64,000 bases of DNA from a virus (IMGVR_UViG_2654587772_000002); one strand, 5' to 3'; positions 27,001 to 57,404 are shown, counted from the first letter of the stretch. Notes: generated by a model from the letters alone, not told the origin. Numbers and translations: made by a program.

Positions 27001-27139
27001 GATTTCGCAGGTCCTGAATCAGTTCCCGTTCCAGGTCCGATTCACTCTGATAGCTGTCGCCTGTTTGCTCAGCTTTGATGTACTTATCAAGAACGATAAA
27101 GTTATTGGATTCAGCAATGGTGTGTGTCTGATGAGTCAT
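24023..27139 (-). CDS. hsdR: Type I restriction enzyme R subunit
   Basis: SF2 helicase motifs (TGSGKT Walker A, DECHR), 1038 aa, operon with hsdM/hsdS. Confidence 0.9.
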
Positions 27140-27261
27140 AGCGCATCCTTTGTGCCGTCTGGCAAGGGCCGGAAGGGGGTTAAGGGTGACTTCCAGCGTG
27201 TAAAAAAATAGCCTATATACTGACCGGGTGTTAAGGTGGCCCGGTCGGTAGCAATGGTCAA

Positions 27262-28473
27262 TTAATTACTGACAGTTTCAGGTTTCGGGAAACTGAACAG
27301 TAAATCACGGTAGTACTCGTATTGTTTCTGGCGCAACTCGATTTCACGCGGGAGACCTTCGGTGATGGAGTTGGTCAGGGTGTCGAACTTATCGAGGATA
27401 AAGGCAATTTTTTGTTGCTCATCAATCGATGGTAAAGGAATAGATAAACCATCAATGTTATTTGCTTTAAGATAACCTTGCCCTGAATTGTTTTTTACTG
27501 ACTTAAAGTAAAATTTCATTCTTGGTGAGTCGAAGAAATGCAGAAAATATCTAGGGTGAAGTAATTCCTCATTCAACCTGATTAGGTACATGTTTTGACC
27601 GTAAAAATCAGGATCGAGACATTTTACTCGAGCAATCTCACCAATAGTACCAATCATGCTTATAAGAAAGTCACCTTTCAAGATCGGTCTATTTTTGGAG
27701 ATGCTCAAAAAATCGTCCCGGGAAATATGCTTAACTCTTTCAAAATCGATGTTCCCACCACTAATATTCTTTGAAGTGACATATGGAATTTCACCATTAT
27801 CATCAAACTTCGGAGTTGCGGGCATAATCCAAAATTTATCTACTAGCACCTCCTCCAAAGTCTTCCACTCAACCTCACCCTCTTTAAAACTCAACAACTG
27901 GTCGCGATAATAGTTGTACTGTTTTTTACGCATGTTAAGCTCAGCGGTAAGCTCAGCGGTAAGTGCAGTAAATTTATCCAGAATCCGAACGATTTCAGAC
28001 TGGATGGCAAGGGATTTTTCCGGATTATCCGGGCAGGGGATTGGGATTTTTTTTTGAGAATAATTACTAATCCATTGGCGTTTATGGTCTCCCTCTGCGA
28101 ATTCACTTGGTAATGTATTGAGCCAATAGTAAACATATTTCAGTAAGGTTTTATTATTATCACATGATGTAACCATTTTCATGGCCGATGATTTTGCCTT
28201 AAAGTCAAAATCCACCCATTTATTAGCGGTGGTGAAATCATCAAAAATTATTACAGGTGCCTTTGATGCCTGGTAAATACCATGAGTCTCATTTGTGTAT
28301 CCAAGAATAAATGTTTTTCCGGCAGTAAGAACCGGTATGGTATATGTGTCGTGATAATCTTTTGCTTTTACCAAATACTTTGTTGGCTGTTCATATTTGG
28401 TTATTTCCCCCAATGGCAACCACTCAACTTCAACCCCATCCAGCAATTTTTCCAGATAACTCAACTCGCTCAT
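27262..28473 (-). CDS. hsdS: Type I R-M specificity subunit
   Basis: 403 aa, two target-recognition-domain halves, overlaps hsdM stop (ATGA). Confidence 0.85.
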
Positions 28474-30032
28474 TTCTGCACCTCGCAGCCTTCAATTTCA
28501 GCCACAATCGCATCAATATCTTTACGCAACTGGTCGATTTTGCTGACCGTGGTTTTCAGCTCAGCATTTAGCTCAGCAATATCGATAGTTTCGCGGTTAT
28601 CTTTCACTTCTACATAGCTGCTCACTGACAGGTTATAGTCATTCGCGACAACGGCCTCAAACGCGACAGATTTTGCCAGATGGGCAACATCTTCCTTGCT
28701 GGAAAATACCTGCATAATTTTTTCGATATGGGCATCGGTCAGGATGTTGTTGTTAGTCTCTTTTTTGAACAGTTCGCTGGCGTCAATAAACTGAACTTTG
28801 GTATCCGTTTTATGTTTAGACAGCACCAGAATATTTACGGCAATGGTGGTGCCAAAGAACAGGTTCGGTGCCAGTGAAATCACGGTTTCGACATAGTTAT
28901 TGTCAACCAGATACTGACGGATTTTCTGCTCCGCTCCGCCACGGTAAAAAATGCCCGGGAAGCAGACAATCGCAGCACGACCTTTGGCAGAAAGATAGTT
29001 CAGCGCATGTAATACAAACGCAAAGTCAGCTTTGGATTTGGGGGCCAGAACGCCAGCCGGGGCAAAACGTTCATCGTTAATCAGCGTCGGGTCATCGCTG
29101 CCAATCCATTTCACCGAATACGGCGGGTTAGAAACGATGGCATCAAACGGTTTTTCATCTCTGAAGTGCGGCTCAGTCAGTGTATTACCCAGCTTGATAT
29201 CAAACTTGTCGTAGTTGATGTTGTGCAAAAACATGTTCATACGCGCCAGGTTATAGGTCGTATGGTTGATCTCCTGACCAAAAAAGCCTTCTTCGATGAT
29301 ATGGTCATCAAACTGTTTTTTAGCCTGCAACAACAGCGAACCGGAACCTGCTGCCGGGTCGTAGATTTTGTTAACGTGGGTCTGGCCGTGCATTGCCAGT
29401 TGTGCAATCAGCTTAGAGACGTGCTGCGGTGTAAAGAACTCGCCGCCGGACTTACCGGCATTCGCCGCATAGTTAGAAATCAGGAACTCATAGGCATCAC
29501 CGAACAGGTCAATCTGATGTTCGTTGAAGTCACCAAGGTTTAACCCTTCAACCCCTTTCAGAACCGCAGCCAGGCGGGCATTTTTATCCTTAACGGTGTT
29601 ACCCAGGCGGTTACTGGTGGTATCGAAATCAGCAAACAAACCTTTGATGTCAGCTTCTGAAGGATAACCGTAAGCAGAACTTTCGATAGCAACGAAGATG
29701 CTGTTTAAATCTGCATTCAGTCTGTCATTGGTATTTGCTTTCGCCGCTACGTTGCAGAAAAGCTGACTTGGGTAGATGAAGTAGCCTTTGGTTTTGATGG
29801 CATCGTCTTTAATGTCATCAGTAATTACGCTGTCATCCAGTTTCGCATAACAGATACTGCCATCACCGGCTTCAATATAGCTGGAAAAATTTTCGCTGAT
29901 AAAACGGTAGAAAAGTGCGCCCAGAACGTATTGCTTAAAATCCCATCCATCGACCGAACCCCTGACATCGTTAGCAATTTGCCAGATTTGACGATGAAGC
30001 TCTGCACGTTGTTGAATACTTGTCATTTTCAT
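28470..30032 (-). CDS. hsdM: Type I R-M N6-adenine methyltransferase subunit
   Basis: [10 protein letters not shown] (motif I) and NPPY (motif IV). Confidence 0.9.
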
Positions 30033-37933: not shown

Positions 37934-38027
37934 TGATCCTCCTCCAGAATTGACATGGTCAATAACGCCCGGCTGAGAAAACCGGTCATTACTGACCTAT
38001 ATTATAGAGGGATCAAACAAAAATAAT

Positions 38028-38044
38028 AGATTTATTAGTGCATT
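38028..38044 (-). promoter_or_regulatory. C1-operator-like site (14/17) between coi and c1
   Basis: AATGCACTAATAAATCT on minus strand. Confidence 0.4.
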
Positions 38045-38253
38045 TATTGTGAGTCCAACTGGTTAGTTGCCATGAGATATTCGATTGTGTCAGTGAGGTC
38101 ATCCAGGTCGTCTTGGGTGATGCGGTACTCCTGATTGGATATCTTTGAGTAGTGTTCAGCAATGGCGCGGGCAGCGTCGGTTTCGGCAGGGTCTACAGAT
38201 AAAGCGTTAGAGCAATGTCTAACGTCGTCGATGGTTGGTTGAATGAAAGCCAT
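38044..38253 (-). CDS. coi: C1 inactivator Coi
   Basis: 69 aa ORF directly upstream of c1 on the same strand. Confidence 0.7.
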   Translation of the reverse strand: MAFIQPTIDDVRHCSNALSVDPAETDAARAIAEHYSKISNQEYRITQDDLDDLTDTIEYLMATNQLDSQ

Positions 38254-38491
38254 AATTATGCCTCACTGTATTGACAACACAGAGCCTGAAGCTCTGACCT
38301 ACTGTTTCACCCATGATCCATGCTGGGGTAATCTAACAACATTGCGCTGTGTGTAAGATGAGCAATGCATAGCTGTAATGCCGTTGTATAAGGTTTCCCT
38401 GTTTGCTCATTTCCTTCTGAGCCGCTCTACAACGCTGAAGACACATTAAATAGTGAATCCAAAGTCGTATTACGAAACGGCGGCAAAACTA

Positions 38492-38508
38492 TAATTTATT
38501 AGAGCAAT
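38492..38508 (-). promoter_or_regulatory. C1 operator (16/17), Op99-like
   Basis: ATTGCTCTAATAAATTA on minus strand upstream of coi. Confidence 0.55.
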
Positions 38509-38574
38509 TGTCAAACAACTATGAAAAACAATCCAGTTTTTGGCTGGTGGAGTGGGATTTTTCTCTCAAAATTT

Positions 38575-38591
38575 ATTGCTCTAATAATTCT
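38575..38591 (+). promoter_or_regulatory. C1 operator ATTGCTCTAATAATTCT (15/17)
   Basis: Inverted relative to 38492 site. Confidence 0.5.
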
Positions 38592-38634
38592 TGATTTTTA
38601 TGCGCAGCTGGACGTAAACTCCTCTTCAGACCTA

Positions 38635-38668
38635 ATAACTTCGTATAGCATACATTATACGAAGTTAT
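38635..38668 (+). other. loxP recombination site
   Basis: Exact ATAACTTCGTATA-GCATACAT-TATACGAAGTTAT. Confidence 0.98.
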
Positions 38669-38740
38669 ATTAAGGGTTATTGAATATGATCAATTTACCT
38701 GTAAATCCATACAGTTCAATACCTTGGCAGGTCAAATAGT

Positions 38741-38828
38741 GATCACTTGATCATTTGATCAAGGTTGCGCTACGTAAAATCTGTGAAAAATTGGCGGTGT
38801 TAGTCCTACAGATTTCGCGTAGCGCACT
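38741..38828 (+). promoter_or_regulatory. cre upstream regulatory region: three tandem GATC sites (TGATCACTTGATCATTTGATCA) and an 18-bp imperfect inverted repeat
   Basis: GATC triplet 38741-38765; inverted repeat GCGCTACGTAAAATCTGT / ACAGATTTCGCGTAGCGC. Confidence 0.5.
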
Positions 38829-38857
38829 TAGCACCACCAATCAATCAGAGGTGAAAA

Positions 38858-39079
38858 ATGGGATATTCAACTGCTAAAGTGTCCACTCATCTTGAGCTTG
38901 AGAAAAACCGTGGTTACTGGCGGGCAAAAGGGTTTGATCGTGATAGTTGCCAACTGTCATTATCGCGCGGTGAAGAAAAAATAGAACGCACGCGCGGTCG
39001 CTGGCGTTTCTATGACGAGAACCATAAACAGGTAAAGGCAGAGCCGATCCTGTACACTTTACTTAAAACCATTATCTGA
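38858..39079 (+). CDS. Small basic ORF (73 aa) immediately upstream of cre
   Basis: SD GAGGTG; coding status uncertain. Confidence 0.3.
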   Translation: MGYSTAKVSTHLELEKNRGYWRAKGFDRDSCQLSLSRGEEKIERTRGRWRFYDENHKQVKAEPILYTLLKTII

Positions 39080-39086
39080 GTGTTAA

Positions 39087-40118
39087 ATGTCCAATTTACT
39101 GACCGTACACCAAAATTTGCCTGCATTACCGGTCGATGCAACGAGTGATGAGGTTCGCAAGAATCTGATGGACATGTTCAGGGATCGCCAGGCGTTTTCT
39201 GAGCATACTTGGAAAATGCTTCTGTCCGTTTGCCGGTCGTGGGCGGCATGGTGCAAGTTGAATAACCGGAAGTGGTTTCCCGCAGAACCTGAAGATGTTC
39301 GCGATTATCTTCTATATCTTCAGGCGCGCGGTCTGGCAGTGAAAACTATCCAGCAACATTTGGGCCAGCTAAATATGCTTCATCGTCGGTCCGGGCTGCC
39401 ACGACCAAGTGACAGCAATGCTGTTTCACTGGTCATGCGACGGATCCGAAAAGAAAACGTTGATGCCGGTGAGCGTGCAAAACAGGCGCTGGCGTTCGAA
39501 CGCACTGATTTCGACCAGGTTCGTTCACTCATGGAAAATAGCGATCGCTGCCAGGATATACGTAATCTGGCATTTCTGGGGATTGCTTATAACACCCTGT
39601 TACGTATAGCCGAAATTTCCAGGATCAGAGTTAAAGATATCTCACGTACTGACGGTGGGAGAATGTTAATCCATATTGGCAGAACGAAAACGCTGGTTAG
39701 CACCGCTGGTGTAGAGAAGGCACTTAGTCTGGGGGTAACTAAACTGGTTGAGCGATGGATTTCTGTCTCTGGTGTGGCTGATGATCCGAATAACTACTTG
39801 TTTTGCCGTGTCAGAAAAAATGGTGTTGCCGCGCCATCTGCCACCAGCCAGCTATCAACTCGCGCCCTGGAAGGGATTTTTGAAGCAACTCACCGATTGA
39901 TTTACGGGGCTAAGGATGACTCTGGCCAGAGGTACCTGGCCTGGTCTGGACACAGTGCCCGTGTCGGAGCCGCGCGAGATATGGCCCGCGCCGGAGTTTC
40001 AATACCGGAGATCATGCAAGCTGGTGGCTGGACCAACGTAAATATTGTCATGAACTATATCCGTAACCTGGATAGTGAAACAGGGGCAATGGTGCGCCTG
40101 CTGGAAGATGGCGATTAG
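39087..40118 (+). CDS. cre: Cre tyrosine recombinase
   Basis: 343-aa sequence MSNLLTVHQNLPALPVDATSDEVRKNLMDMFRDRQAFSEHTWKMLLSVCRSWAAWCKL... matches Cre. Confidence 0.98.
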   Translation: MSNLLTVHQNLPALPVDATSDEVRKNLMDMFRDRQAFSEHTWKMLLSVCRSWAAWCKLNNRKWFPAEPEDVRDYLLYLQARGLAVKTIQQHLGQLNMLHRRSGLPRPSDSNAVSLVMRRIRKENVDAGERAKQALAFERTDFDQVRSLMENSDRCQDIRNLAFLGIAYNTLLRIAEISRIRVKDISRTDGGRMLIHIGRTKTLVSTAGVEKALSLGVTKLVERWISVSGVADDPNNYLFCRVRKNGVAAPSATSQLSTRALEGIFEATHRLIYGAKDDSGQRYLAWSGHSARVGAARDMARAGVSIPEIMQAGGWTNVNIVMNYIRNLDSETGAMVRLLEDGD

Positions 40119-40168
40119 CCATTAACGCGTAAATGATTGTTCTAATTCTTTGATATTTATGGTGACAT

Positions 40169-40480
40169 ATGAGAAAGGATTTCAACATCGACGGAAAATA
40201 TGTAGTGCTGTCTGTAAGCACTAATATTCAGTCGCCAGCCGTCATTGTCACTGTAAAGCTGAGCGATAGAATGCCTGATATTGACTCAATATCCGTTGCG
40301 TTCCCTGTCAAAAGTATGCGTGGTGCTGAACATTTCGTGATGAATGCCACCGAGGAAGAAGCACGGCGCGGTTTTGCTAAAGTAGTGTCTGACTTTGGCG
40401 AACTCTTGGATAAGGTTAACAATGTCCTTTCAATCAGTTCAGCAAGGTCCAAAGCGTTAACAGCTTCCATGATGAAATAA
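40169..40480 (+). CDS. Small protein downstream of cre (cra position)
   Basis: 103-aa ORF. Confidence 0.45.
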   Translation: MRKDFNIDGKYVVLSVSTNIQSPAVIVTVKLSDRMPDIDSISVAFPVKSMRGAEHFVMNATEEEARRGFAKVVSDFGELLDKVNNVLSISSARSKALTASMMK

Positions 40481-40607
40481 AAAAAGCCTGGCAAGGAACC
40501 AGGCTGCACAAAAGAGCGGGTTTGTGTTCCGCATCCAATCAATCAGAAAGGAGTATAGCACATAGATACTAAAGTGAAAAAATGTGACTGAAGATAAACA
40601 ATATAAC

Positions 40608-40624
40608 ATTGCTCTAATTGATTG
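40608..40624 (+). promoter_or_regulatory. C1-operator-like site ATTGCTCTAATTGATTG (14/17)
   Basis: At the position where P1 has the ref operator; here followed by cargo. Confidence 0.45.
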
Positions 40625-40828
40625 TTATAATTGAGCCGTGGCGTTAGTCAACTACGAAGACGTGGCCATTACCTACTTAACCAGTTCCGCCAGGGCAGCA
40701 GAGTAGGTTTCATCTCGGATGTACCATGCCTGCATGTTTTCCAGAGAAGCCCGCGAGGTTCCCGGACAGGACTCTGCCATTGCGATAGATTAAATGCAAT
40801 AACCTAAAAGCGATAACGTGGTGGAAAA

Positions 40829-41468
40829 ATGTTCATCAGAGCTTATTTAAGGGCATCAACGGAAGATCAGTTTGCCGATCGGGCAAAAGAGATGCTGGGG
40901 CAGTTTGTTCAGGAGCGGGGACATAAAATAGCCAGTTACTACCGGGAGAACATAAGCGGTACAAAACTCGACCGCCGGAACTGGGACGCTTACTGATGGA
41001 CAGCCACCGCAATGATATTTTACTGGTCGAGCAAATTGACCGCCTGACCCGTCTGAGTAACAGTGACTGGATTACGCTGAAAAAGCAGATAGAACAACAC
41101 GAACTGCGGATTGTCGCCTGGATGTATCCACCTCATGGCAGGCGCTGTCAGATAAAGACCCTTCGCAGGCTGACCCAATCACCCGCGCCGTGATAACCGC
41201 CATCAATAACATGCTTATCGACCTGATGGCCGCGATGTCGCATAAGGACTGGCTGAGCCGTCGCCAACGGCAACAACAGGGAATTGAACGGGCTCATACG
41301 CTGGGTAAATACCGGGGATAACAGGCCGATCAGGAACGGCATCAGAAAGTCCTGTACTACTGGCAGGTCAAGAAACTAAGTATCCATGAAACGGCAGATG
41401 CGACAGGGTACAGTCCTTCACAGATATGCCGCATTCAAGCCCTTTATAGAGAGCCTGAATCGGAATAA
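40829..41468 (+). pseudogene. Serine recombinase (resolvase/invertase family) pseudogene with at least 3 frame disruptions
   Basis: MFIRAYLRASTEDQ... / DRPELGRLLMDSHRNDILLVEQIDRLTRL / ...HETADATGYSPSQICRI (HTH) in three different frames. Confidence 0.6.
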
Positions 41469-41574
41469 AAAGTAGCCCAGGCGTTAATGGATTACCTTTC
41501 CAGGCTAAGCTCATTGCTCCTGTCAGATACGCAGCCCTGCCTGTAATAATACAGACTGGGCAATGTGTTGCCAC

Positions 41575-41976
41575 TCAGGCTGACAACTGTCGGAGGATAT
41601 CCGCTGTATTATAATGAGCCCGTTTTTCTATATATTTCCCGTCTTTCAGAGTGATCATAAACATCAGAGAAAAGCGCACTTTCCTGCCGCTGGCAGGATG
41701 CCCAAGGAATTCACGGGTCTGCACGCCTTCAAAGATAAGATAGCAGGCGACTTTATCGTCTCTGGCAAAGATTTCGTGGATACGCATTGTAAATCCCGGA
41801 AAAGCATCCATATGGCCTTTTTCCTGTACGATAAACTGCTCACTGTTCAGCGGTGTATCCACCTGAGAATAGAATTTAAAATCCGGATGGCAGAGGTTTT
41901 TCACCTCATCATATTTATTTTCTTCAATCAGACGATAAAACTTTTTAACCGTTTTGATATTTTCTTAAACAGACAT
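41575..41976 (-). pseudogene. SnoaL-like small protein with in-frame TAA at codon 4 (ATG TCT GTT TAA)
   Basis: Natural ATG at 41976 followed by stop at 41965-41967, frame then open to 41575; NTF2/SnoaL-like composition. Confidence 0.45.
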
Positions 41977-41984
41977 ATTGCACC

Positions 41985-42974
41985 TCATTTTTCAGTTTCT
42001 TTACCTGCCGGAATATTGCCTTCCGGCGTTCCGTTAAATGTTTTTCGCCATTCACTGGGACTGACTCCCATCCGCTGCCGGAATATCTGCCGGAAAGTAA
42101 TGGTGGACTGAAAGCCTGCCAGTTCGGCAACCCGCTCCACTGCAATATCTGTACTTTCCAGCAGTTCCTGACTCCGCCGGAGACGCTCTGTGGTGATCCA
42201 CTCCCAGACCGTCATTCCTGTGGCCGAATGAAAATGGCGTGTAAGCGTTCTTCGGCTCATGGAGGCTAAATGGGCCAGAGTGTCAATATCATGTGGTAAT
42301 CCCAGATTTGCGGACAGGTATTCCAGCAGCTGGTTTATGCGGTTATCGGACGTACTTTTGGGAATAAGCAGTTGCCGGTACTGTGCCTGTCCGCCTTCCC
42401 GGTAAGGAGGAGCAACCATCCGGCGGGCTATTTGATTAGCCGTATATCTGCCCAGGCGTTGCCGGATCACATGGAGACAACAGTCCAGTGCTGCGGCTGT
42501 ACCGGCTGAGGTGATAATCCGCTCGTCCTCAACATAAAGCACGTTCACGTCCAGATGAACCGCCGGGAAAAGCATCTGGAAATCCCGTTCAGCCTCCCAG
42601 TGCGTGGCCGCCCGTTTACCATCCAGCAGACCGGTGTAAGCCAGAACAAAACTCCCCAGGCACAGGCCCACCACCTGAGCTCCATTTTTCCAGGCTGCAA
42701 CCAGGGCACTGAGCAGAGTTTCAGAAGGCCTTTCATGGATGTGTTTCCAGAAAGGAATAATAACGATATCGGCCTCTGCCAGTGCATCAAGCCCGTATTC
42801 TGCCCTCATCGCCGTACCTTCAGCAGACCAGATAAGCCCGGGCTCTTCCGCACATACCCGGCGGCTGAAGAGGGCCTTCCCTTCCAGTATCTCCCCGAAC
42901 AGGATTAATGGAACGGAGACATGAAATGTACTGAACCCTTCGGTGATCACTATAGCGACAGTGATGGTGGACAT
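41985..42974 (-). CDS. GlxA-family transcriptional regulator (DJ-1/PfpI domain + AraC HTH)
   Basis: N-terminal class-I glutamine amidotransferase-like region, C-terminal AraC-type HTH. Confidence 0.75.
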   Translation of the reverse strand: MSTITVAIVITEGFSTFHVSVPLILFGEILEGKALFSRRVCAEEPGLIWSAEGTAMRAEYGLDALAEADIVIIPFWKHIHERPSETLLSALVAAWKNGAQVVGLCLGSFVLAYTGLLDGKRAATHWEAERDFQMLFPAVHLDVNVLYVEDERIITSAGTAAALDCCLHVIRQRLGRYTANQIARRMVAPPYREGGQAQYRQLLIPKSTSDNRINQLLEYLSANLGLPHDIDTLAHLASMSRRTLTRHFHSATGMTVWEWITTERLRRSQELLESTDIAVERVAELAGFQSTITFRQIFRQRMGVSPSEWRKTFNGTPEGNIPAGKETEK

Positions 42975-42989
42975 GCCATGGCCTCCGGG

Positions 42990-43766
42990 TTAAATCGTAA
43001 CTGATTCACCATCAGCAGGAGCGACAACTGACGCCTGGATCTGGTTATCGCGGGCATATTCCAGCAGTTCCTGACGGGTCAGCAGACAGTGGTTTACGGC
43101 CTCCATGTGCGTTGCCACAATCAGTGCCTCTGGTACGATACGATGGGCTTTCAGGACATCTTCCCTGCCGAAAATAATGGGGCCGAATCCGAGAACATGC
43201 GCCCAGCCCGTATTCATAATAACGACGCCAGGATTGAACCGACGTAAATTATCCTCTACAGCCTTGATCCAGATGGTATCCCCAACCAGATAGAGCGTTT
43301 TTTCGGACGGATGCTGGAAGACCACCCCACAGGCATCCCCAAGAATTGCTGCGAGTTGCGGGTTAGCATAGGCTTCGTCCGAACCATGCTGACAAACGGT
43401 TTTAATAAGTGAAATTTCGCCAAATGTGCTTTTGTCAGACAGAATAACAAGGTTGCTGAAGCCCTGGGAACGCAGGATCTTTTCATCATGTTCATTCTGA
43501 ACATAAATCAGTTTATCTTTCGGGATGTGCGCAACAGCCGCTTCATCCCAGTGGTCAGGGTGTGTGTGGGTGACAATAATGGCATCCACATCCAGCAGTA
43601 CATCAAGGTCAAAAGGCAGCTCAGTCATCGGGATGCGGATATCTGACCGGGCCGTTCCTTCGAATCCCGGATAGGCTTCTTTTTTCGCAAGCATCGGATC
43701 GACAAGAAATTTTTTACCAGCGTAAGAAATGAGTTGTGTGGCGTTACGTACCTGGATGATCTTCAT
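42990..43766 (-). CDS. MBL-fold metallo-hydrolase
   Basis: THTHPDHWDE (HxHxDH) motif. Confidence 0.75.
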   Translation of the reverse strand: MKIIQVRNATQLISYAGKKFLVDPMLAKKEAYPGFEGTARSDIRIPMTELPFDLDVLLDVDAIIVTHTHPDHWDEAAVAHIPKDKLIYVQNEHDEKILRSQGFSNLVILSDKSTFGEISLIKTVCQHGSDEAYANPQLAAILGDACGVVFQHPSEKTLYLVGDTIWIKAVEDNLRRFNPGVVIMNTGWAHVLGFGPIIFGREDVLKAHRIVPEALIVATHMEAVNHCLLTRQELLEYARDNQIQASVVAPADGESVTI

Positions 43767-43981
43767 TTTAGCAAGTCCTGTATTGGTTAATAACCATCAG
43801 AGCCATATCATGATGGCCTAATGTGATAATTATGATTAAATCAGGCCTGCCTGCCACTGAAATAATGCCATATTTGGATGATATCAGGCCATTCTTCTGG
43901 CTCTCAGGTTTCAGGAATATGTCTGCTGAAAGCGGGTACAGATCTGACGCATTGAAGGGAAGTATCGTCCTTTAAGGCTTA

Positions 43982-44371
43982 TTGATGTCAGCCAGTACAA
44001 AAAATCATCTTAACGTACAATATCTTCCGTTTCCCAAACGGAGCCCACCAACGACGGAGGAACGGCGCATCGCCAATGCTCTTGGCGCTCTCCCCTGCAT
44101 TGCCTGCTATATGCCTGGAGTAATATCTAATGAGGTGTCTCTGAACCATATCGCCGGTCGTACCGCGCCGGGTTGTCACAAAAAGCAATTGCCACTTTGT
44201 AGATGGCACCACCAGCATGCAGCACCGGCTGAAGTAAGAGAAAAATACCCCTGGCTGGTCCCTGTTCATGCCGATGGTGTGGTTGGAGGCAAGAAAGAAT
44301 TCACCTTGCTGAACAAGTCAGAGATGGAGTTGCTGGCTGACGCCTATGAAATGGCAAACGTCATGCACTAA
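43982..44371 (+). CDS. Cys/His-rich small protein (possible HNH/Ref-like nuclease core)
   Basis: CIACY...NHIAG...GCHKK..PLCRWHHQH pattern. Confidence 0.35.
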   Translation: MMSASTKNHLNVQYLPFPKRSPPTTEERRIANALGALPCIACYMPGVISNEVSLNHIAGRTAPGCHKKQLPLCRWHHQHAAPAEVREKYPWLVPVHADGVVGGKKEFTLLNKSEMELLADAYEMANVMH

Positions 44372-44378
44372 TAAATAT
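44362..44378 (+). promoter_or_regulatory. Weak C1-operator-like site (13/17)
   Basis: ATGCACTAATAAATAT. Confidence 0.3.
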
Positions 44379-44560
44379 ATTATTTTTAATCTTAAATGAT
44401 TGACAACTGACAAGTGACTTGAGTCAGAATCATCACACGCCCGGTACGGATGGATCCCTTTTCAAATATTCCATGGACGGCACAGTCTGAGTACCGGGCG
44501 CTACCTTCTGTTGTATTGCTAAGCCGCCGCTGGTGGCTTTTCTTTTTTATAGGGGGCGAT

Positions 44561-45205
44561 ATGGATAAGAAAATATGCGTTGTTTCGATGAGCGTCGGTA
44601 AACCGGCGTCAATGACTGCTGCATGGATCAACAACGAGCTGATAATGGCTGAGCGGACCAGCTACCCTGAACGCCGCCGCGATATGGAACTCCAGCTGCT
44701 GCGCGAATTGCGAGAAAAAGAGGAAAAGGGTTTTATCGTGCTGGTGGAAGAGGAAAACAGCTTTATTACCGGTCGAGTTGGCCAGCGTGTAAGGTTGCGC
44801 GATCCCTTCATGAACGGCAGGCCGGTACTAATTGAAGCAATGCAGATTTACAAGGAGCTGGAACGCCAGAAAGCGATCAAGTTACCGCGCAAGGAATCCG
44901 GCAAATACATCCTCCACCAAAGCATCTTCGATTCCGAACACGATAAAAAAGGCGATGAGTTTTTCAACATCAACTGGAGCGAAATAACGACAGAGCATGT
45001 TCTGACGTTGTTATGCTGCTTCGCAACAGAATACAACAACGTGGTAAGCGCAGACTACATCAGGACAATGACAGACACCGTTACTAAACAAGACAACGAA
45101 TATTCACCATATGAGCCATTTGTAAATATGATAAAAGCATTTTATCGGATGGAGCTCGCTAAAGTTCCTCAAGGTAAATTAACAGGTAAGGATAACATCT
45201 TTTAA
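44561..45205 (+). CDS. Hypothetical protein (214 aa)
   Basis: AGGGGG SD, ATG 44561. Confidence 0.45.
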   Translation: MDKKICVVSMSVGKPASMTAAWINNELIMAERTSYPERRRDMELQLLRELREKEEKGFIVLVEEENSFITGRVGQRVRLRDPFMNGRPVLIEAMQIYKELERQKAIKLPRKESGKYILHQSIFDSEHDKKGDEFFNINWSEITTEHVLTLLCCFATEYNNVVSADYIRTMTDTVTKQDNEYSPYEPFVNMIKAFYRMELAKVPQGKLTGKDNIF

Positions 45206-45258
45206 GCACAGTAATGAGGTGCTTAGATGTTAATATCAATATCCTAACTCTCTGCATC

Positions 45259-45948
45259 TCATAAATCTGATAGCCACTTACTATCTATGGACTCAATCTC
45301 CGTCAGCGGAATTGATGGGAAAAAATATCCCTGAGCGCCCCATAGCCCTATTCCTTTTGATAACTTATGACAATCAATGTTTTCGACGCCTTCAGCGATG
45401 ATATTCGGACATAACTTTTTTAAATTGCTAATAATGACATCAAAATGAGGCTTAATCATATGCTCTTGAAAAAATGACTTATCAAGTTTTATTGCATGGT
45501 ATTTATTTTTAATTAATGCTTTCATGGTGGCGTTACCACTTCCAAAATCATCAAGCCAAACATAGTCTGTCAAAGTCAGGAGAAAGGGTATAACGTAATC
45601 CTCATCGCTTAAATCAGGGTAGTTTTCTGATATCTCAAGAACTATAAATTTATTGTTTTTAATTAACTCTTGAGTTTGTTTATTACTGTATATATATATA
45701 CATGTATCATAATCTACATTAATAGAACATAGTATATTATGGCGTTCAAAAAAACACTTGTATTTCATTATTGTGTTAAGTTGTGATTTAAGTAAATTAA
45801 TCTTCATCTTATTGGTAAACATACCCAATACTCTTTGAGTAGGAAGAGCGACACCATCTTTGGAGCGAAATCTGCTTAACACTTCTACTGCAATCAACTT
45901 GTTCGTGCTCGTAGAAATGATTGGTTCTGCAATGTAGATAACTTCCAT
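45259..45948 (-). CDS. Stand-alone EAL-domain protein (c-di-GMP phosphodiesterase-like), AT-rich gene
   Basis: EVL(SRF), ENYP, DDFGSG, KLDKSF, EGVE motifs in EAL order. Confidence 0.75.
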   Translation of the reverse strand: MEVIYIAEPIISTSTNKLIAVEVLSRFRSKDGVALPTQRVLGMFTNKMKINLLKSQLNTIMKYKCFFERHNILCSINVDYDTCIYIYSNKQTQELIKNNKFIVLEISENYPDLSDEDYVIPFLLTLTDYVWLDDFGSGNATMKALIKNKYHAIKLDKSFFQEHMIKPHFDVIISNLKKLCPNIIAEGVENIDCHKLSKGIGLWGAQGYFFPSIPLTEIESIDSKWLSDL

Positions 45949-46184
45949 ATCCCCACCCTCAAGTTTTAAATTGCTTGATTTTGCTCAGATAACGAGCCCC
46001 CTATATTTACAAGAGTTACACTCTACTTTTGTAGATTAAATGTCAATTTATTTGTTTGTGATAATATTGAAAAATATCAATTAAAACAATCAAAAAATGT
46101 GACATAAATCAATAATTTTATTTTTACACAACTTCTTGATTTCTGAGCCTAGCTATCTCTATTCTTATTCAAAGCCTCTTTAGA

Positions 46185-46919
46185 ATGGTGGTGGCCATGT
46201 CAGCAGTTTGTTACTTCATACTCATAAAGAAACCTATAAGCTTTCAATTTCTTAAGGATTTCTTAATATTAAATTATGGTGATGTGTTGTTGCTTAAGCA
46301 TTCTGAGCATGAATGCTTAAAAATCTATTCAGACAAATATATAGAATTCGAACTCAATGATAATACCGTAAGAAACTATTTATCATGCAACAACAACCAT
46401 GGAAACCAATCGCTGGATAAGTGTCCGCATTTGCTAAAAAAGTCTTTTGCCTATCCTGATTTATTAATCAGGATGATCGATAATATAAGCGATCAAAATC
46501 ATATCCATTCTGATTTTAGGGAGGCAGTAACTTTTTCATTACTCTCAATTTTTAATGATGTTGATAACTTTAGAGCATTTCTTACGTCTGGTATGCCCAC
46601 TTTCTCAGGGAAAGTGCGCAGCATATTTCTTTCAGATGTATCTAAACACTGGAAACTAAGAGACCTAACCGATTATCTCTACATGAGTGAAAGCTTAATA
46701 AAGAAAAAACTATTATTGGAAAACACCTCCTTCAGTAAGTTATTACTTGATACACGGATGGCTTTTGCTATTAAATTACTAAAGCAAAATCATCCAGTCA
46801 AACAAGTATCAGAAAGCTGTGGCTTTAGTAGTACATCGTACTTTGTGTGCCTGTTCAGGCAATATTATAATTGCACGCCACGTGAATATGCAAAACATCA
46901 ATTATTATCTGGAAAATAA
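46185..46919 (+). CDS. AraC-family regulator of the AppY/EnvY/GadX/Rns type, AT-rich gene
   Basis: C-terminal HTH closely resembles E. coli AppY (WKLRDLTDYLYMSESLIKKKL...TRMAFAIKLL...SSTSYFVCLFRQYY). Confidence 0.75.
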   Translation: MVVAMSAVCYFILIKKPISFQFLKDFLILNYGDVLLLKHSEHECLKIYSDKYIEFELNDNTVRNYLSCNNNHGNQSLDKCPHLLKKSFAYPDLLIRMIDNISDQNHIHSDFREAVTFSLLSIFNDVDNFRAFLTSGMPTFSGKVRSIFLSDVSKHWKLRDLTDYLYMSESLIKKKLLLENTSFSKLLLDTRMAFAIKLLKQNHPVKQVSESCGFSSTSYFVCLFRQYYNCTPREYAKHQLLSGK

Positions 46920-46957
46920 GATGCATTTATCTCCCAGATAATATTGTAATATTAAAC

Positions 46958-47206
46958 TCAGTCAGCATTTAGTAGCAGAGCATTATCTATGATGATCTGC
47001 TCCCATTCTTCGAATGCCCGGTCACGGACGCCCTGGGGAACACTGTTTGTTTTGAAATCAACGACTGTCCGCCATTTCCCGTCCGGACGGTACATGCGCA
47101 GAGCTTTACTTCCCCCTTCCCTACGCACCTCAACGTTATGCTTGTCAGCAAACTCTTGTAATGCTCGTAGCGTCCCATGCTTTACTGTGTAGTATCGCTT
47201 TTTCAA
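46958..47206 (-). CDS. Small protein at lxc position (immT-like)
   Basis: 82-aa ORF downstream of ulx/darB on same strand. Confidence 0.5.
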   Translation of the reverse strand: MKKRYYTVKHGTLRALQEFADKHNVEVRREGGSKALRMYRPDGKWRTVVDFKTNSVPQGVRDRAFEEWEQIIIDNALLLNAD

Positions 47207-47643
47207 GTTTTCTCTCCAGCCTGTGCCAAGGCTTCAACTTCCAAATCGTAAGACTCAAACTCATAGTCCTGGTCGTCAACTTCTTCAGGCACTGGCAGTA
47301 AATGCCAGGCTGAGTATATCTGACCATTATCAAAACGCTCCTGGCTGTAGAGCGTCGCAGCTATGAGCGTCAGCGCCGGGCGGTCATAACGGTAAATTTT
47401 GCGAACGTCACGGTCAACGAGACGACCGAAATTACCATAACCGCGCTCCAGTAATAATTTTTTAATTTCCGGCCAGTATGGGCCATAGCTGCGGTACAGG
47501 CGGGGATTTTTCAGTAATCGCCCGCGTAGCCCTGACAGGAAGAAATCAACGTATTCGTCTTCTGTCTTTCCTAACAACGCTGTACGGAGTACCGCCTCAA
47601 GATATGTTTTATTCGGTTTTATTGTATCAGATAGTGTGGCCAT
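47203..47643 (-). CDS. Protein at ulx position (between darB and lxc)
   Basis: 146-aa ORF, ATGA-type overlap with downstream gene. Confidence 0.5.
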   Translation of the reverse strand: MATLSDTIKPNKTYLEAVLRTALLGKTEDEYVDFFLSGLRGRLLKNPRLYRSYGPYWPEIKKLLLERGYGNFGRLVDRDVRKIYRYDRPALTLIAATLYSQERFDNGQIYSAWHLLPVPEEVDDQDYEFESYDLEVEALAQAGEKT

Positions 47644-47676
47644 ATTATGCGACGCCCGGCGAACCGGGCGCTCCTG

Positions 47677-50600
47677 TTATGCGTATTGTTGGATGACGGC
47701 CAGAACGTCCGCCACGTTGTGTTTTGTCTCGATAATCCACCAGTTACCCGGGAAATCGCTGTTCTTCGCCTTCGCTGGCAGCCAGCGAGCGCCGAATTTC
47801 GCCTTGATTGCGTCTTTCGCACGGAAAAGAACGCCTTTCATGCCTGAGGCTTCCTGAAGCCCAAATACCTCGCCAGCGGCGAATTTTGGTGCGTACATCA
47901 TCTTCAGGTCGGCGGTGGATACGCGATAATTCAGACCTAGAGACTGAGCTATGCTGGTGGCATCACCCTGTATTGATGATAACTCTTCTTGTTTCTCGTT
48001 TCTGGCGGCAATCTCTTCCTCCGTGATGTTGCCAAGGGCCAGGTTTATCCGATCAGCGTCGGCCTGTTTCTCTTCATCGGTGCGCCCGGCAAGAACCGTG
48101 TTAATTCTCTGCAATATCTCCACATGATTCTTGCGCATGCTGAGCAATTCCGGCGTAACCTCGTTAAGATCCACCAGCCCAAGGATGGCAAGGTCGGAAA
48201 ACATTGATACCAGGTTGTAGGTCATGCGATAGCTGAGTTGACCATAGGCTGATGGCAACTTCACCGCATCCATTTGATAGGCATCCATAAATTTAGAGCC
48301 GTCGTTTACGACATCCGCTATTGCAGGTGTGATTTTCCCTGTGGTGGCGGCCTCCCTGATTGCTGTTACCCACGATTGAGTCAGCGCGGCGACTGCATGA
48401 TTCAGATTGGCTTCCCGTTCTGCTGCGATGCGCGCGCTTGCTGCGTCCATTGCCTGCTTGATCTCGGCTTTATTGCTGTAAATGCCAATGGTGCCAAACT
48501 GTGCTGTGGTGATCTCATAATCTGACGCCCGGAACTCATTGGTACCGAAAATGGCATTGGTGACTTCAAGTTCAGAATCCCCGTTACGAGTAGCCCCCTG
48601 GCTTGTTTTTTCCGGCATTCTGGCGATCGCATCCGCTATTTTCTCCTGAATTGCTTCAGGGGATAGCGTATCTCCGTATGACGCGATTACATCGCCATAA
48701 TTGGAGCCAAACAATTCAACCAGGAATGTTTCTGCCGAACGGATCTGGCGGTTATTCCCTTCCGACATCATACCAAGCACCCATTTTGCAATTGACGACT
48801 TCAGCGCGACGTCACGGCGATCCGGGTAAACCGCATGCTTCAGTGGGTCCGTATAGGTACCAACAAAATCAATGCTATAGCCTGACTCTGTAGTCTGAAC
48901 GCCGTATGAGTCAGTGATTTTGATCATGCCGCGCTGCTGGAAACGGTAGAAATCGTCACAGGAAATGATGTCGTTAATCCCGGCGATGGAGACGCCGCCA
49001 CTGATTTTCTGCATAACAGCATCTTCATCGGGAGTTACATCAACCTGTTTATCCAGCGTCTTCACATCCCAGTTACCCGATTTGGTACCTTTGAAGGTAA
49101 AGATAATCTCCACGTCTGCGCGCAGGCTGTCGAAGTCCAGCGACTTAATGCGAACGATATCACCGGCACAATCGTAGTATTGGCCTACACGCCATGAGCG
49201 ATCGCCGATAATAAGGAACTCACTCGCATGGTTAACCAGGTCAGGATCAACATCCAGAATGCCTTTATTTATTGCATCCTCCACCAGCGGGCGCAGGCGT
49301 TTGATATCCGTCGCGGCCTTCTGAGTACGGTTCAATAATTTCTCATAGCGGGAGATGGCTTGAGAGATATTAGCCTTGCGCTGAATGGCGCTTTTCAACG
49401 ACGCGCGATACTGTGCTAACAACGTACGGTCTGTGTGATGGACGCTACCCCAGCGGGCTTTCCAGTCTGCGTTATCAGCTGCTTTGGCCATTACCGCCTG
49501 TTTGAATTTGGCGACGTCGGCGGTGGTCTTTTCAAGTTCCGCTTTGCTTCGCTCTAATTCAGCGGTAAGCACCTCCACATCCTCACCAGCTGCGTGCTGC
49601 GCCTTGATGTAGTTCTGAAGGTCGATAGTAGCCTGTTCTTTCTGGCGAGCGCGTTGCGCGGCTTTCGCCTTATCCATTTGAACCTGCATCATTGCCAGAC
49701 GTTCGCCATCATCCTTAGCGGTATACATCTGCATTTCGATCATATCGTTGGCGTCGGCGTTCTCCATTTCTGACTTATCTGAACGGAGGATATCGGAGAT
49801 CCAACCTGCTTTACGCTTCAGCGTCTTCAGTCGGTATTCATCGAAAGAACCCTTGCCGCAGTAGTAGTGAACGCGAACGCTTGCACGGTTGGAACCAACT
49901 CGGGCACCGCGACCGTTACGCTGTGCGATACTGGCTGGTGTCCATGGCAACGTCAGATGATGGATGTCAGTCGTTCCTCGATGCAGGTTGATACCCACCT
50001 CTGCCTTTTTGTTGCAGATGATGATCGGAGTCCGGCCCTCCTGGAAGTCGGCTGCAATCTTTTCCAGACCGCCCAACGACATTTCATTTTGCTGCGCGAT
50101 ATAGGCGTCATACAGAGCTATTTGCTCGTTGTATTTCGCTATCTGTGCATCTGTTGGTTCATCCGGTAACTCTTTCGGCGGTTTAACCGCTTTCAGTTTC
50201 TTACCGGTTTTACCTGCCTCGGCAACCGTCTGAGCATTCAGGATCCCCACCTTTGAAGGTTCAAGGTTAAGAGCATTGCAGATAATGCGCTTGAGCTTCT
50301 GGTGTTGCGTTTTTTCATCGGTGAAGATGATTTGCTTACCTTCTGGGAAAAACTCCTTCAGCGTGGCAATCAGCTTCGCGTATTTGGGCGTAACGGGGTG
50401 AGTTACGGTCTGTTCGTCAATGCCAAACTTGGCCAGGCGCTTATTCACTTCCTGCTCAAATGCTTCCGGTACCTGCAACTGAATAAACTCGCCCTTATCT
50501 ATCAGGGAGTATTGCGATTGCTGCGTGATTGAATCATCACTGTCGTCGTCTTCGCTGGTGGCTTGTTTGGGCAAACTGTCCGCCAGCTGCTGCACCGCAT

Positions 50601-56273: not shown

Positions 56274-57404
56274 CTAAACCACATGAAGCGGCTTAGGAAT
56301 TACAGACTCTCCAAGGGCTAACACTGCCAGCCCGGCAGCTTTTATATTACGGGCCGCGTTAATATCACGATCATGCTCTGCGCCACATTCCGGGCAGTGC
56401 CATTTACGAATATTAAGAGGCATTTTTTGCATGGTGAAGCCGCAACTGCTGCAACGTTTGGAAGAAGGGAAATACTGGTCGATAGCGACAATGCTACGTC
56501 CACCCCATTCTCCTTTGTACTGGAGTTGGCGTACAAGTTCGCTCCAGCCTGCGTCAGCTATTGCTTTAGACAGCTTCGGGTTACGGATCATGTTTTTCAC
56601 TTTAAGGGATTCGACGCAAACAACTTGGTTTTCGTTAATCAGTTTGCGGGACAACTTATGCAGGTTATCCATCCGACAATCGACTATTCTCGCGTGGAGG
56701 CGGGCAACCTTTAAACGTGCTTTGGCGCGGTTCTTTGAGCCTTTTTGTTTCTTGCTCAATCTGCGCTGTAACACTGCTAATCGCTTCGCGTATTTAGCGT
56801 TGTGTCGAGGATTGCCAGTTTTAAAACCGGTATCGGTGACGAACAAATCTTTTAAACCAATATCAATGCCGACCGTGGAAACGGTGATCGGCAGTGATAC
56901 AGGCTCAAACTCGCAGAGACAGGATACAAAATATCGTCCGGCAGCATCCCTGGTGATAGTGACAGTGGATGGAGCAGACGGCAACGGACGGCTCCAGCGA
57001 ACATCTAACGGCTCTTTGCTCTTTGCCATGTACAGCTTGCCGTCACGGTATTTAAATGCGCTGGCAGTTAGTTCTGCGGCCTGTTTATGCCGCTTGCTCT
57101 TAAAAACTGGGTATGCAGCACGCCCGGCGAAAAAGTTAGCAAAAGCCGTTTGTTGGTGGCGCAGAGACTGCTGGAGGGGGACGCAGGAAACGTCATTCAG
57201 CCAAGCGAATTCTGGTTCTTTTTTCAGTGCCGTTAATTTGGCGCTGGCTTGTGCATAGCCGACCCTCTCATGGCGTGCGTAGTACGCATCGGTGCGCCAG
57301 CGAAGGAGGCTGTTATAGACAAAACGCACACACCCAAAAGTCCGGGCTAATAGCTCGGTTTGTTCGGGAGTTGGATAGAATCGATATTTATAGGCACGCT
57401 TCAT
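56274..57404 (-). CDS. tnpB: IS200/IS605-family TnpB (RuvC-like RNA-guided nuclease), no tnpA nearby
   Basis: N-terminal MKRAYKYRFYPTPEQ..., RuvC-like region, C-terminal zinc finger CSSCG...CPECG. Confidence 0.85.
   Translation of the reverse strand: MKRAYKYRFYPTPEQTELLARTFGCVRFVYNSLLRWRTDAYYARHERVGYAQASAKLTALKKEPEFAWLNDVSCVPLQQSLRHQQTAFANFFAGRAAYPVFKSKRHKQAAELTASAFKYRDGKLYMAKSKEPLDVRWSRPLPSAPSTVTITRDAAGRYFVSCLCEFEPVSLPITVSTVGIDIGLKDLFVTDTGFKTGNPRHNAKYAKRLAVLQRRLSKKQKGSKNRAKARLKVARLHARIVDCRMDNLHKLSRKLINENQVVCVESLKVKNMIRNPKLSKAIADAGWSELVRQLQYKGEWGGRSIVAIDQYFPSSKRCSSCGFTMQKMPLNIRKWHCPECGAEHDRDINAARNIKAAGLAVLALGESVIPKPLHVV

Follow-up and report, generated by a model that had tools for sequence, protein, structure and literature searches.

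The viral DNA IMGVR_UViG_2654587772_000002 was analysed as one stretch of 64,000 nucleotides (nt), called the window below, and all positions are counted along its whole length. It probably belongs to a P1-like phage-plasmid in which the interval between c8 and lxc holds two separate, previously described insertions, with a truncated ref and mat kept between them. The insertions are two independent events and do not form one island. The first, module A, is what remains of a Tn3-family transposon that entered ref at codon 77. The second, module B, lies between mat and lxc and contains an intact, selected EAL-domain gene and a divergent AraC-type regulator gene, which form a mobile two-gene unit in a recombination slot.

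Window positions 38652-48500 were compared by blastn with phage P1 (NC_005856), whose annotation also supplied the gene names, and the plasmid pJIE250-3 (NZ_MN510445) served as the main sister plasmid. Three blocks are collinear with P1, and two replaced segments lie between them (Table 1). Block 1 comprises a lox half-site, cra, cre, c8 and the Oref/P2ref region, and P1 homology stops just past Oref. Block 2 contains ref codons 77-186, Omat, Pmat/LPmat and most of mat, while block 3 continues with lxc, ulx and darB. Segment 1 (40673-44039, 3367 bp) stands in place of P1 2027-2305, and segment 2 (45071-46961, 1891 bp) in place of P1 3337-9753, which holds the mat 3' end, res, and mod with IS5. 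Among ref, mat, res and mod, only res and mod are wholly gone from window 40500-46950. The guanine plus cytosine (GC) content is 28-35% in the EAL/AraC pair, about 50% in the backbone and 53-55% in the MBL and GlxA genes of module A. Since at least 28 plasmid records, pJIE250-3 among them, contain this 7.2-kb region at 97% identity, the layout is not a chance pattern.

A preliminary description of this DNA, made from the sequence alone, had proposed an alignment with P1, which now defines the junctions at 40672, 44040, 45070 and 46962. The operator-like site that it placed at 40608, the position of the P1 ref operator, is the sequence ATTGCTCTAATTGATTG, identical at 17/17 positions to the annotated C1 operator Oref of P1 (P1 1962-1978). 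The P2ref-like promoter that overlaps this site is the best promoter-like match in the interval (10/12, extended -10). The gene before the operator had been called cra; it is c8, and cra lies upstream of cre. As described, no restriction or modification gene was found between 40500 and 46950, and the backbone resumes at the 3' end of lxc. Profile matches likewise bear out the decayed serine recombinase, whose gene is split over three frames, the GlxA/MBL/SnoaL operon on the minus strand and both domains of the AT-rich EAL/AraC pair. A "Cys/His-rich small protein" is indeed encoded by a plus-strand open reading frame (ORF) of 129 amino acids (aa), but it is not anonymous, being the Ref catalytic core. 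The product listed as hypothetical is intact Mat.

In module A, the tnpA fragment carries the annotation "Tn3 family transposase" in pTET-GZEC065 and is a partial coding sequence in Escherichia coli ST2747. It matches the end of a 706-aa TnpA ORF that is divergent from the same resolvase in a Citrobacter plasmid. The resolvase homologue of the window is placed divergently from tnpA as in the Tn3 family, though broken by two frameshifts. An intact 211-aa homologue used as a tblastn query matches it in frames 3, 2 and 1 at 88-98% aa identity, and the pseudogene is 86-92% identical at the nt level to intact genes on more than 1000 enterobacterial plasmids. At the right end, the 38-bp terminal inverted repeat is identical at 23/38 positions to the Tn1721 repeat abutting ref in SJ46, including the inner blocks CTTA(A/G)CGTAC and TTCCG. 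Copies of this repeat, about 92% identical, lie directly after the same resolvase in other plasmids, such as NZ_CP035847; elsewhere the resolvase is found with other cargo (frmRAB).

The left inverted repeat was sought in window 38001-46000, where no inverted partner was found (best match 20/38). Deletion has taken away the left end of the transposon together with 279 bp of P1 sequence next to it. No functional TnpA is encoded, and only a remnant of the transposon is present. We infer one insertion, followed by deletions that took most of tnpA together with the left repeat on the transposon side, and the P1ref promoter with ref codons 1-76 on the P1 side. Because tnpR is frameshifted and the SnoaL gene has an early stop, module A is no longer mobile.

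Module A follows the plan of Tn1721 of SJ46 and Tn2 of P7: tnpA and tnpR diverge, the resolvase is of the serine type, the terminal repeat has 38 bp, and the cargo fills the space from tnpR to the right end. Tn1721 in SJ46 also lies in or next to ref, as does Tn2 in P7 (PMC6906374). In contrast to these transposons, module A is left with a single repeat, about 100 nt of tnpA and a frameshifted tnpR, and no target-site duplication can be recovered. Its cargo is the MBL/GlxA/SnoaL operon, whereas Tn1721/Tn2-type cargo consists of resistance genes.

Two further elements carry related structures. In SJ46 (625-4001), Tn1721 with tnpR and tnpA sits in the 3' end of ref, and its terminal repeat abuts the last 8 ref codons; here a Tn3-family element entered ref a second time, independently, and with the orientation seen in the window. 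In the Citrobacter plasmid NZ_CP073009.1 (3049-6469), an intact version of the window resolvase is followed by the formaldehyde detoxification genes frmR-frmA-VOC-fghA as passengers, and tnpA is cut by IS26 three codons from the point at which the tnpA fragment of the window meets P1 DNA.

The passengers between tnpR and the right repeat are genes for a metallo-β-lactamase (MBL)-fold hydrolase, a GlxA/FtrA-type regulator and a SnoaL-like protein. The regulator scores 312 bits against the NCBIfam FtrA model, under the cut-off of 425. The SnoaL gene has TAA at codon 4, where pJIE250-3 has GAA (Glu4), and what remains is a GTG-started ORF of 109 aa (41575-41904). On chromosomes of Enterobacterales and Vibrionaceae, the MBL-GlxA pair is a widespread operon, kept in about 70/80 loci, and a SnoaL gene sometimes lies within the pair. 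The closest relatives of the MBL and GlxA proteins are from Photorhabdus (79% and 74% aa identity, respectively, in a search of one genome per species). Translational coupling in the original operon is suggested by the sequence ATGA at 41985-41988, in which an upstream in-frame ATG of the SnoaL frame overlaps the GlxA-like stop codon.

The truncated Ref matches Pfam RecA_dep_nuc at 2e-48 over model positions 1-102/103, and residues 76-186 of PDB entry 3PLW at 5e-70. The core is complete and the N-terminal ~76 residues are gone, the ref promoter and codons 1-76 being replaced by transposon sequence. In the crystal structure, the ordered Ref core begins right at this junction. In the 2011 work of Gruenig et al. 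on structure 3PLW, the disordered N-terminus is said to be needed for optimal activity; full Ref function is therefore unlikely. RefSeq marks the truncated ref as a partial pseudogene in ST2747. The ORF is intact, with the same junction, in 5/6 elements with module A, and the shared junction indicates a single origin. Compared with P1, it has 5 synonymous and 5 nonsynonymous changes, giving a ratio of nonsynonymous to synonymous substitution rates (dN/dS) of 0.30, although 10 substitutions are too sparse to tell a pseudogene from a maintained gene.

Downstream, Mat is near-identical to P1 Mat up to residue ~198, and the differences are concentrated after this point. Codons 1-207 of mat have a dN/dS of 0.09, while the last ~45 codons (from 45071) are an allele linked to the cassette. 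The synonymous divergence (dS) of the backbone from P1 is 0.02-0.16.

The EAL protein of module B scores 65.6 bits against Pfam EAL (gathering cut-off 31.3). All catalytic motifs are present (E22-V-L-x-R, N77, E108-x-x-E, DDFGSG, K154-L-D, EGVE and QG), as expected from the sequence of a cyclic di-GMP (c-di-GMP) phosphodiesterase, and they are kept in relatives down to about 31% identity. On these sequence grounds, the protein is a predicted c-di-GMP phosphodiesterase. Its score against the PdeH model (NCBIfam NF008617) is 95.4 bits (3e-27), below the equivalog cut-off of 190. The gene is under purifying selection (dN/dS 0.14), and the same is true of the AraC gene (0.09), each compared with the common allele of pJIE250-3 and P1vir. 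Between alleles, dS is 0.3-0.5 for both genes, several-fold deeper than in the backbone.

Members of the EAL family are found almost only on E. coli mobile elements, at 96, 90, 86, 68, 56 and 46-49% identity to the window protein; Erwiniaceae relatives (about 35%) and SfaY (25%) follow. Distant relatives lie at the ends of pap-like operons, and this position at fimbrial operon ends resembles that of SfaY, which also stands at the end of a fimbrial operon. Like PdeH (YhjH) and SfaY/PdeY, the protein is a single EAL domain (~230-255 aa in this group) with the full catalytic signature. Unlike them, it is encoded on mobile elements and paired with an AraC regulator, and it is only 25-28% identical to them. 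An assignment as SfaY (PdeY) itself was rejected at 25% identity. The closest solved structures by sequence are YdiV of E. coli and STM1697 of Salmonella (28-30% identity, full length). These proteins are catalytically degenerate, with GNLGAG or GDLGVG for DDFGSG and GGID or GGQE for EGVE, whereas the site of the window protein is intact.

The AraC protein scores 50.3 bits against HTH_18 (cut-off 33.6), and matches the YdeO model (NCBIfam NF007407) over its full length with 152 bits (2e-44), not reaching the equivalog cut-off of 348; it belongs to the family but is not YdeO itself. Its matches in the PDB are CsvR (8e-21), Rns (2.5e-20) and GadX (3e-19). With the YdeO/GadX/AppY and Rns/CsvR regulators, horizontally acquired activators of E. 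coli that antagonise H-NS, it shares an AT-rich gene, which here lies on a mobile element. AppY is a prophage-encoded member of this group (PMC10057817). The window protein differs from the YdeO and Rns types in that it lies under every equivalog cut-off, and in that its partner is an EAL gene and not acid-resistance or fimbrial genes.

The two genes appear to travel together. The identity ladder of the AraC relatives runs parallel to that of the EAL family, and a divergent pair of this kind, about 68% identical in aa sequence, is carried by IncFII plasmids and also lies less than 2 kb from chaperone-usher fimbrial genes. The region between the genes, presumed to contain both promoters, is 76% identical between the two alleles, with gaps, and no binding site was recognised in it.

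Module B occupies the slot known as RD-1, as P1 homology stops at P1 3336 within mat and restarts at P1 9754 at the end of lxc. To survey the slot, 80 P1-like IMG/VR loci were fetched with an Lxc probe and their mat-lxc intervals were classified. The borders are the same in all 80 loci, and there are about 11 alternative contents: SIR2 (13 loci; PADLOC PDC-S25/ThsA-like), DUF2971 (10-11 loci; PDC-S31), CapRel (9-10 loci; PDC-S33, where the SJ46 gene sits), an empty slot (8 loci), the type III restriction-modification (RM) genes res-mod (7 loci), a GNAT-like gene (~7 loci), a PIN-like gene (6 loci; PDC-S34, partial), YaaC with a deoxyribosyltransferase-like gene (4 loci), JukA with HTH and ant-like genes (4 loci; JukA), EAL/AraC (4 loci) and a lipoprotein gene (1 locus). 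The GNAT-like, YaaC, EAL/AraC and lipoprotein contents have no defence-model match. The empty slot of RCS47 leaves 39 bp between mat and lxc, which are convergent.

The last ~45 residues of Mat exist as cassette-specific alleles in the IMG/VR loci (L107-L186) and the window (45071-45205). Of the loci with one particular tail, 10/10 have SIR2, and of those with another, 9/9 have DUF2971; the EAL-linked tail is the most divergent. Since each cassette type has its own tail allele, the left crossover is placed inside mat. The cassette has no recombinase of its own, and it is bordered by a point within mat on one side and the lxc end on the other. These sequence patterns suggest that the slot is refilled by homologous recombination, with crossovers in mat and at lxc, and not by a site-specific enzyme.

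The two modules assort independently. Module A is also found with SIR2, DUF2971 or YaaC cassettes instead of EAL/AraC, and EAL/AraC is found with a complete ref and no module A in IMG/VR loci and in a record of laboratory P1vir (OP279344). Among 5426 complete E. coli genomes, 698 (~13%) carry lxc-ulx, almost always on plasmids, 145 carry the EAL/AraC cassette and 99 carry the cargo of module A. Like CapRel-SJ46 and other single-gene defence cassettes, EAL/AraC sits in the mat-lxc slot, has a low GC content and measures ~1-2 kb; unlike them, it has no homology to these cassettes and no significant PADLOC match.

The P1vir record (OP279344.1, 3525-5150) comes from a pAgo study (PMC10250240). This laboratory stock was deposited as "P1 isolate del res del mod", and has EAL/AraC between mat and lxc and a complete ref. 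Its EAL and AraC proteins are 90% and 86% identical to those of the window, respectively.

The survey also showed that the c8-mat interval is a second variable site. In 8/66 IMG/VR loci (L129, L136, L139, L168, L169, L177, L179 and L184), ref is absent and a segment of ~2.0-2.15 kb is found instead. In L139 (12810-14830), the only one of the eight examined, it encodes a 370-aa protein, with a near-identical ORF in the JukA-type mat-lxc cassette of L108. This protein was labelled ant-like by analogy with pSvP1.

Table 1 Features of the c8-lxc interval and its flanks (positions in the window; E-values for Pfam matches).
Feature	Position	Strand	Description and evidence
P1 block 1	38652-40672		P1 1-2026; 96.9% identity
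cra	38858-39079		Upstream of cre
cre	39087-40118		
c8	40169-40480	+	Collinear with P1 1518-1829 (annotated c8); six nt differences from P1
P2ref-like promoter	40603-40631	+	Overlaps C1 operator Oref
C1 operator Oref	40608-40624	+	
Module A	40673-44046		Tn3-family transposon debris inserted in ref
tnpA fragment	40673-40780	-	~aa 680-706, ~35 codons (~100 nt); homology to annotated TnpA
tnpR (resolvase) pseudogene	40829-41465	+	Two frameshifts; Resolvase 3.8e-16 on joined frames
SnoaL-like "ester cyclase" gene	41575-41976	-	SnoaL 2.5e-21, model positions 20-126
GlxA/FtrA-like regulator	41985-42974	-	Intact; DJ-1/PfpI and AraC HTH; HTH_18 1.8e-20, DJ-1_PfpI 9.8e-11
MBL-fold metallo-hydrolase	42990-43766	-	Intact; first operon gene; Lactamase_B_2 3.1e-9
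Truncated ref	43982-44371	+	129-aa ORF, ATG at 43985; core, P1 Ref residues 77-186
Terminal inverted repeat, right end	44009-44046		38 bp, CTTAACGTACAATATCTTCCGTTTCCCAAACGGAGCCC; abuts ref codon 77/78
P1 block 2	44040-45070		P1 2306-3336; 96.3% identity
Omat and Pmat/LPmat region	44362-44445		Conserved; 98% identical to P1 2596-2726 (annotated Omat, Pmat, LPmat)
mat	44450-45205	+	Intact, 251 aa; 86% aa identity to P1 Mat
Module B	45071-46961		1.9-kb AT-rich cassette between convergent mat and lxc; P1 has res-mod there
EAL-domain protein	45259-45948	-	Stand-alone, 229 aa; predicted active c-di-GMP phosphodiesterase; EAL 5.5e-18
EAL-AraC intergenic region	45949-46184		Divergent; presumed both promoters; 28-33% GC
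AraC/XylS regulator	46185-46919	+	244 aa, YdeO/GadX/Rns-like; HTH_18 3.1e-13; RefSeq start 46197
lxc	46958-47206	-	P1 backbone back at 46962 (lxc 3' end), then ulx, darB
P1 block 3	46962-48500		P1 9754-11292; 98.3% identity

The gene content of module B points to lysogenic conversion of c-di-GMP signalling as its putative role. The AraC protein would activate the AT-rich, probably H-NS-silenced, divergent promoters, and the EAL enzyme would hydrolyse c-di-GMP. Lysogens would then shift to motility and away from curli, cellulose matrix and biofilm. The cassette would be a lysogenic-conversion module derived from E. coli fimbrial and plasmid regulatory loci that couple fimbriae to motility.

Several observations weigh against this account of the two modules. 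The left end of module A and its target-site duplication are gone, and transposition is read from one end; no donor of the passenger operon above 79% aa identity was found when one genome per species was searched. For module B, the solved structures nearest to the EAL protein belong to STM1697 and YdiV, which are degenerate and bind FlhD instead of acting as enzymes, and the putative link from AraC to EAL is drawn from the conserved divergent pairing of the two genes. The slot mostly holds known or candidate anti-phage genes, which favours a phage-related role over plain lifestyle conversion.

It is conceivable, though we consider it unlikely, that EAL/AraC is a phage-resistance module acting in superinfection exclusion. 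Phage receptors that depend on c-di-GMP would be switched off once it is drained, among them the NfrB exopolysaccharide that phage N4 requires, or a surface of the YdiV/STM1697 type would shut down flagella and thereby exclude flagellotropic phages. At least 6 of the ~11 slot classes match defence models (type III RM, CapRel/PDC-S33, SIR2/PDC-S25, DUF2971/PDC-S31, JukA and PIN/PDC-S34), and the confinement of the EAL family to E. coli mobile elements, with an identity ladder from 100% to 46%, would fit such a role, as would the FlhD-binding STM1697 and YdiV as nearest PDB relatives. N4 resistance is reported to arise when six E. coli c-di-GMP phosphodiesterases are overexpressed, which starves the c-di-GMP-dependent NfrB receptor pathway (PMC8669469, citing a Dub-seq study). 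However, the same paper describes c-di-GMP in E. coli as already very low through PdeH. The pair also has no significant PADLOC match; the EAL protein hit the Cyclase model at E 0.0089, with no passing stretch. The PADLOC-DB v2 scan returned no family for AraC, MBL, GlxA, SnoaL, Ref or Mat either, and for lack of a significant hit no known defence system can be assigned to the cargo. The dN/dS values of 0.09-0.14 reflect ordinary purifying and not diversifying selection, relatives lie beside fimbrial operons and plasmid replication genes and not in defence islands, and the catalytic site is intact, unlike that of YdiV and STM1697. There is a small chance that EAL/AraC is a novel occupant of a defence hotspot, an AraC-gated second-messenger "drain" that would shield P1 lysogens from other phages.

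Less probable still is a mainly non-enzymatic role, in which the EAL protein, at a level set by AraC, would hold down flagellar gene expression in lysogens as an anti-FlhD4C2 factor like YdiV/STM1697. The best PDB matches, STM1697 (1.5e-29) and YdiV/CdgR (6e-22), are far ahead of the active EAL domain of PdeL/YahA (5e-9), which speaks for this possibility. Yet the window family keeps, under purifying selection, DDFG, EGVE and other catalytic residues that are no longer present in YdiV and STM1697, and the nearest NCBIfam model is that of the active PdeH (95 bits). Lysogenic conversion through c-di-GMP hydrolysis remains the reading that we favour for the cassette.

It is very improbable that one recombinase-associated cargo island of 6.3 kb replaced the ref-mat-res-mod block of P1, as the preliminary description had it: a serine recombinase remnant does lie at the left edge and res-mod is absent, but the middle part, 96% identical to P1, comprises the ref core, Omat, Pmat and mat and so refutes it, the segments differ in GC content (~53% vs ~31%) and are found independently in other elements, and the recombinase is a dead Tn3-family resolvase. 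What that description saw as one island is two unrelated segments divided by 1 kb of P1 backbone. It had itself named intact homologues of ref, mat, res or mod in the interval as the finding that would overturn it; mat is there intact, and ref in part. Accessory DNA does take the position of res-mod, though not that of mat and only partly that of ref. A recombinase is associated with module A and not with the mat-lxc cassette, and the proposal of an accessory hotspot agrees with the naming of RD-1 by Venturini et al. (PMC6906374).

The overall arrangement is already known, and our details refine this picture without defining a new kind of element. Venturini et al. (Sci Rep 9:18861, 2019; PMC6906374) described pJIE250-3 as a P1-like plasmid of E. 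coli ST405 with five additional orfs, a regulator and a putative resolvase among them, in the c8-mat interval close to where P7 has Tn2. In RD-1, res-mod was replaced by 2 orfs, including a putative transcriptional regulator. pJIE250-3 is collinear with window 38652-48500 at 97.2% identity. Its EAL/AraC cassette is a different allele (~89% nt and ~90% aa identity), and its SnoaL gene is intact where the window has a stop codon. As far as its available text goes, the paper does not mention the retained ref core, the transposon nature of the insertion or the EAL domain, and the words "ref" and "EAL" are absent from the main text.

Later surveys found that P1-like elements carry type III RM, CapRel and other defences. 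In the literature that we searched, module A is not stated to be a Tn3-family remnant truncating ref at the core boundary; nor are an EAL domain with an intact active site, cassette-specific Mat tails or a census of slot contents stated there. A published description of mat-lxc as a defence hotspot was not found in this literature either, in a search that was incomplete and is no proof.

Outside the interval, the window encodes a complete type I RM system on the minus strand (24023-30032; hsdR 1038 aa, hsdS 403 aa, hsdM 520 aa, with strong Pfam matches), which adjoins phd/doc in the related ST2747 record. Type III res-mod of P1 is lost from this element, which nevertheless has a restriction system at another site. 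The head/lysis region contains an inserted IS200/IS605-family TnpB with OrfB_IS605 and Cas12f1-like TNB domains (56274-57404, minus strand); in pJIE250-3, Venturini et al. place IS609 between RD-1 and RD-2 (PMC6906374). In the E. coli ST2747 "chromosomes" NZ_CP007393.1 and NZ_CP007394.1, a P1-like element that is 100% identical over the cargo lies inside the chromosome sequence. One record is without cre, the other without mat, EAL, AraC, lxc and darB, and there are frameshifted genes, including darB. Both records are related to the window without being the same sequence. Either the element has truly integrated and decayed in them, or the assemblies are at fault.

As a published variant, this layout is common among P1-like plasmids, and about a fifth as many genomes match the cassette as match lxc-ulx. 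Tn3-family transposons have hit ref repeatedly, and the gene is dispensable in nature. A P1vir stock that carries EAL/AraC instead of res-mod could affect host c-di-GMP physiology in transduction and infection work. The mat-lxc slot behaves as an exchange site for one cassette at a time, mostly with anti-phage genes, and its uncharacterised occupants, including EAL/AraC, are for this reason cheap candidates for testing. If EAL/AraC did act as a c-di-GMP drain against other phages, the slot would be a compact exchange site for defence cassettes, and the YaaC plus deoxyribosyltransferase-like, GNAT and lipoprotein occupants would be further candidates.

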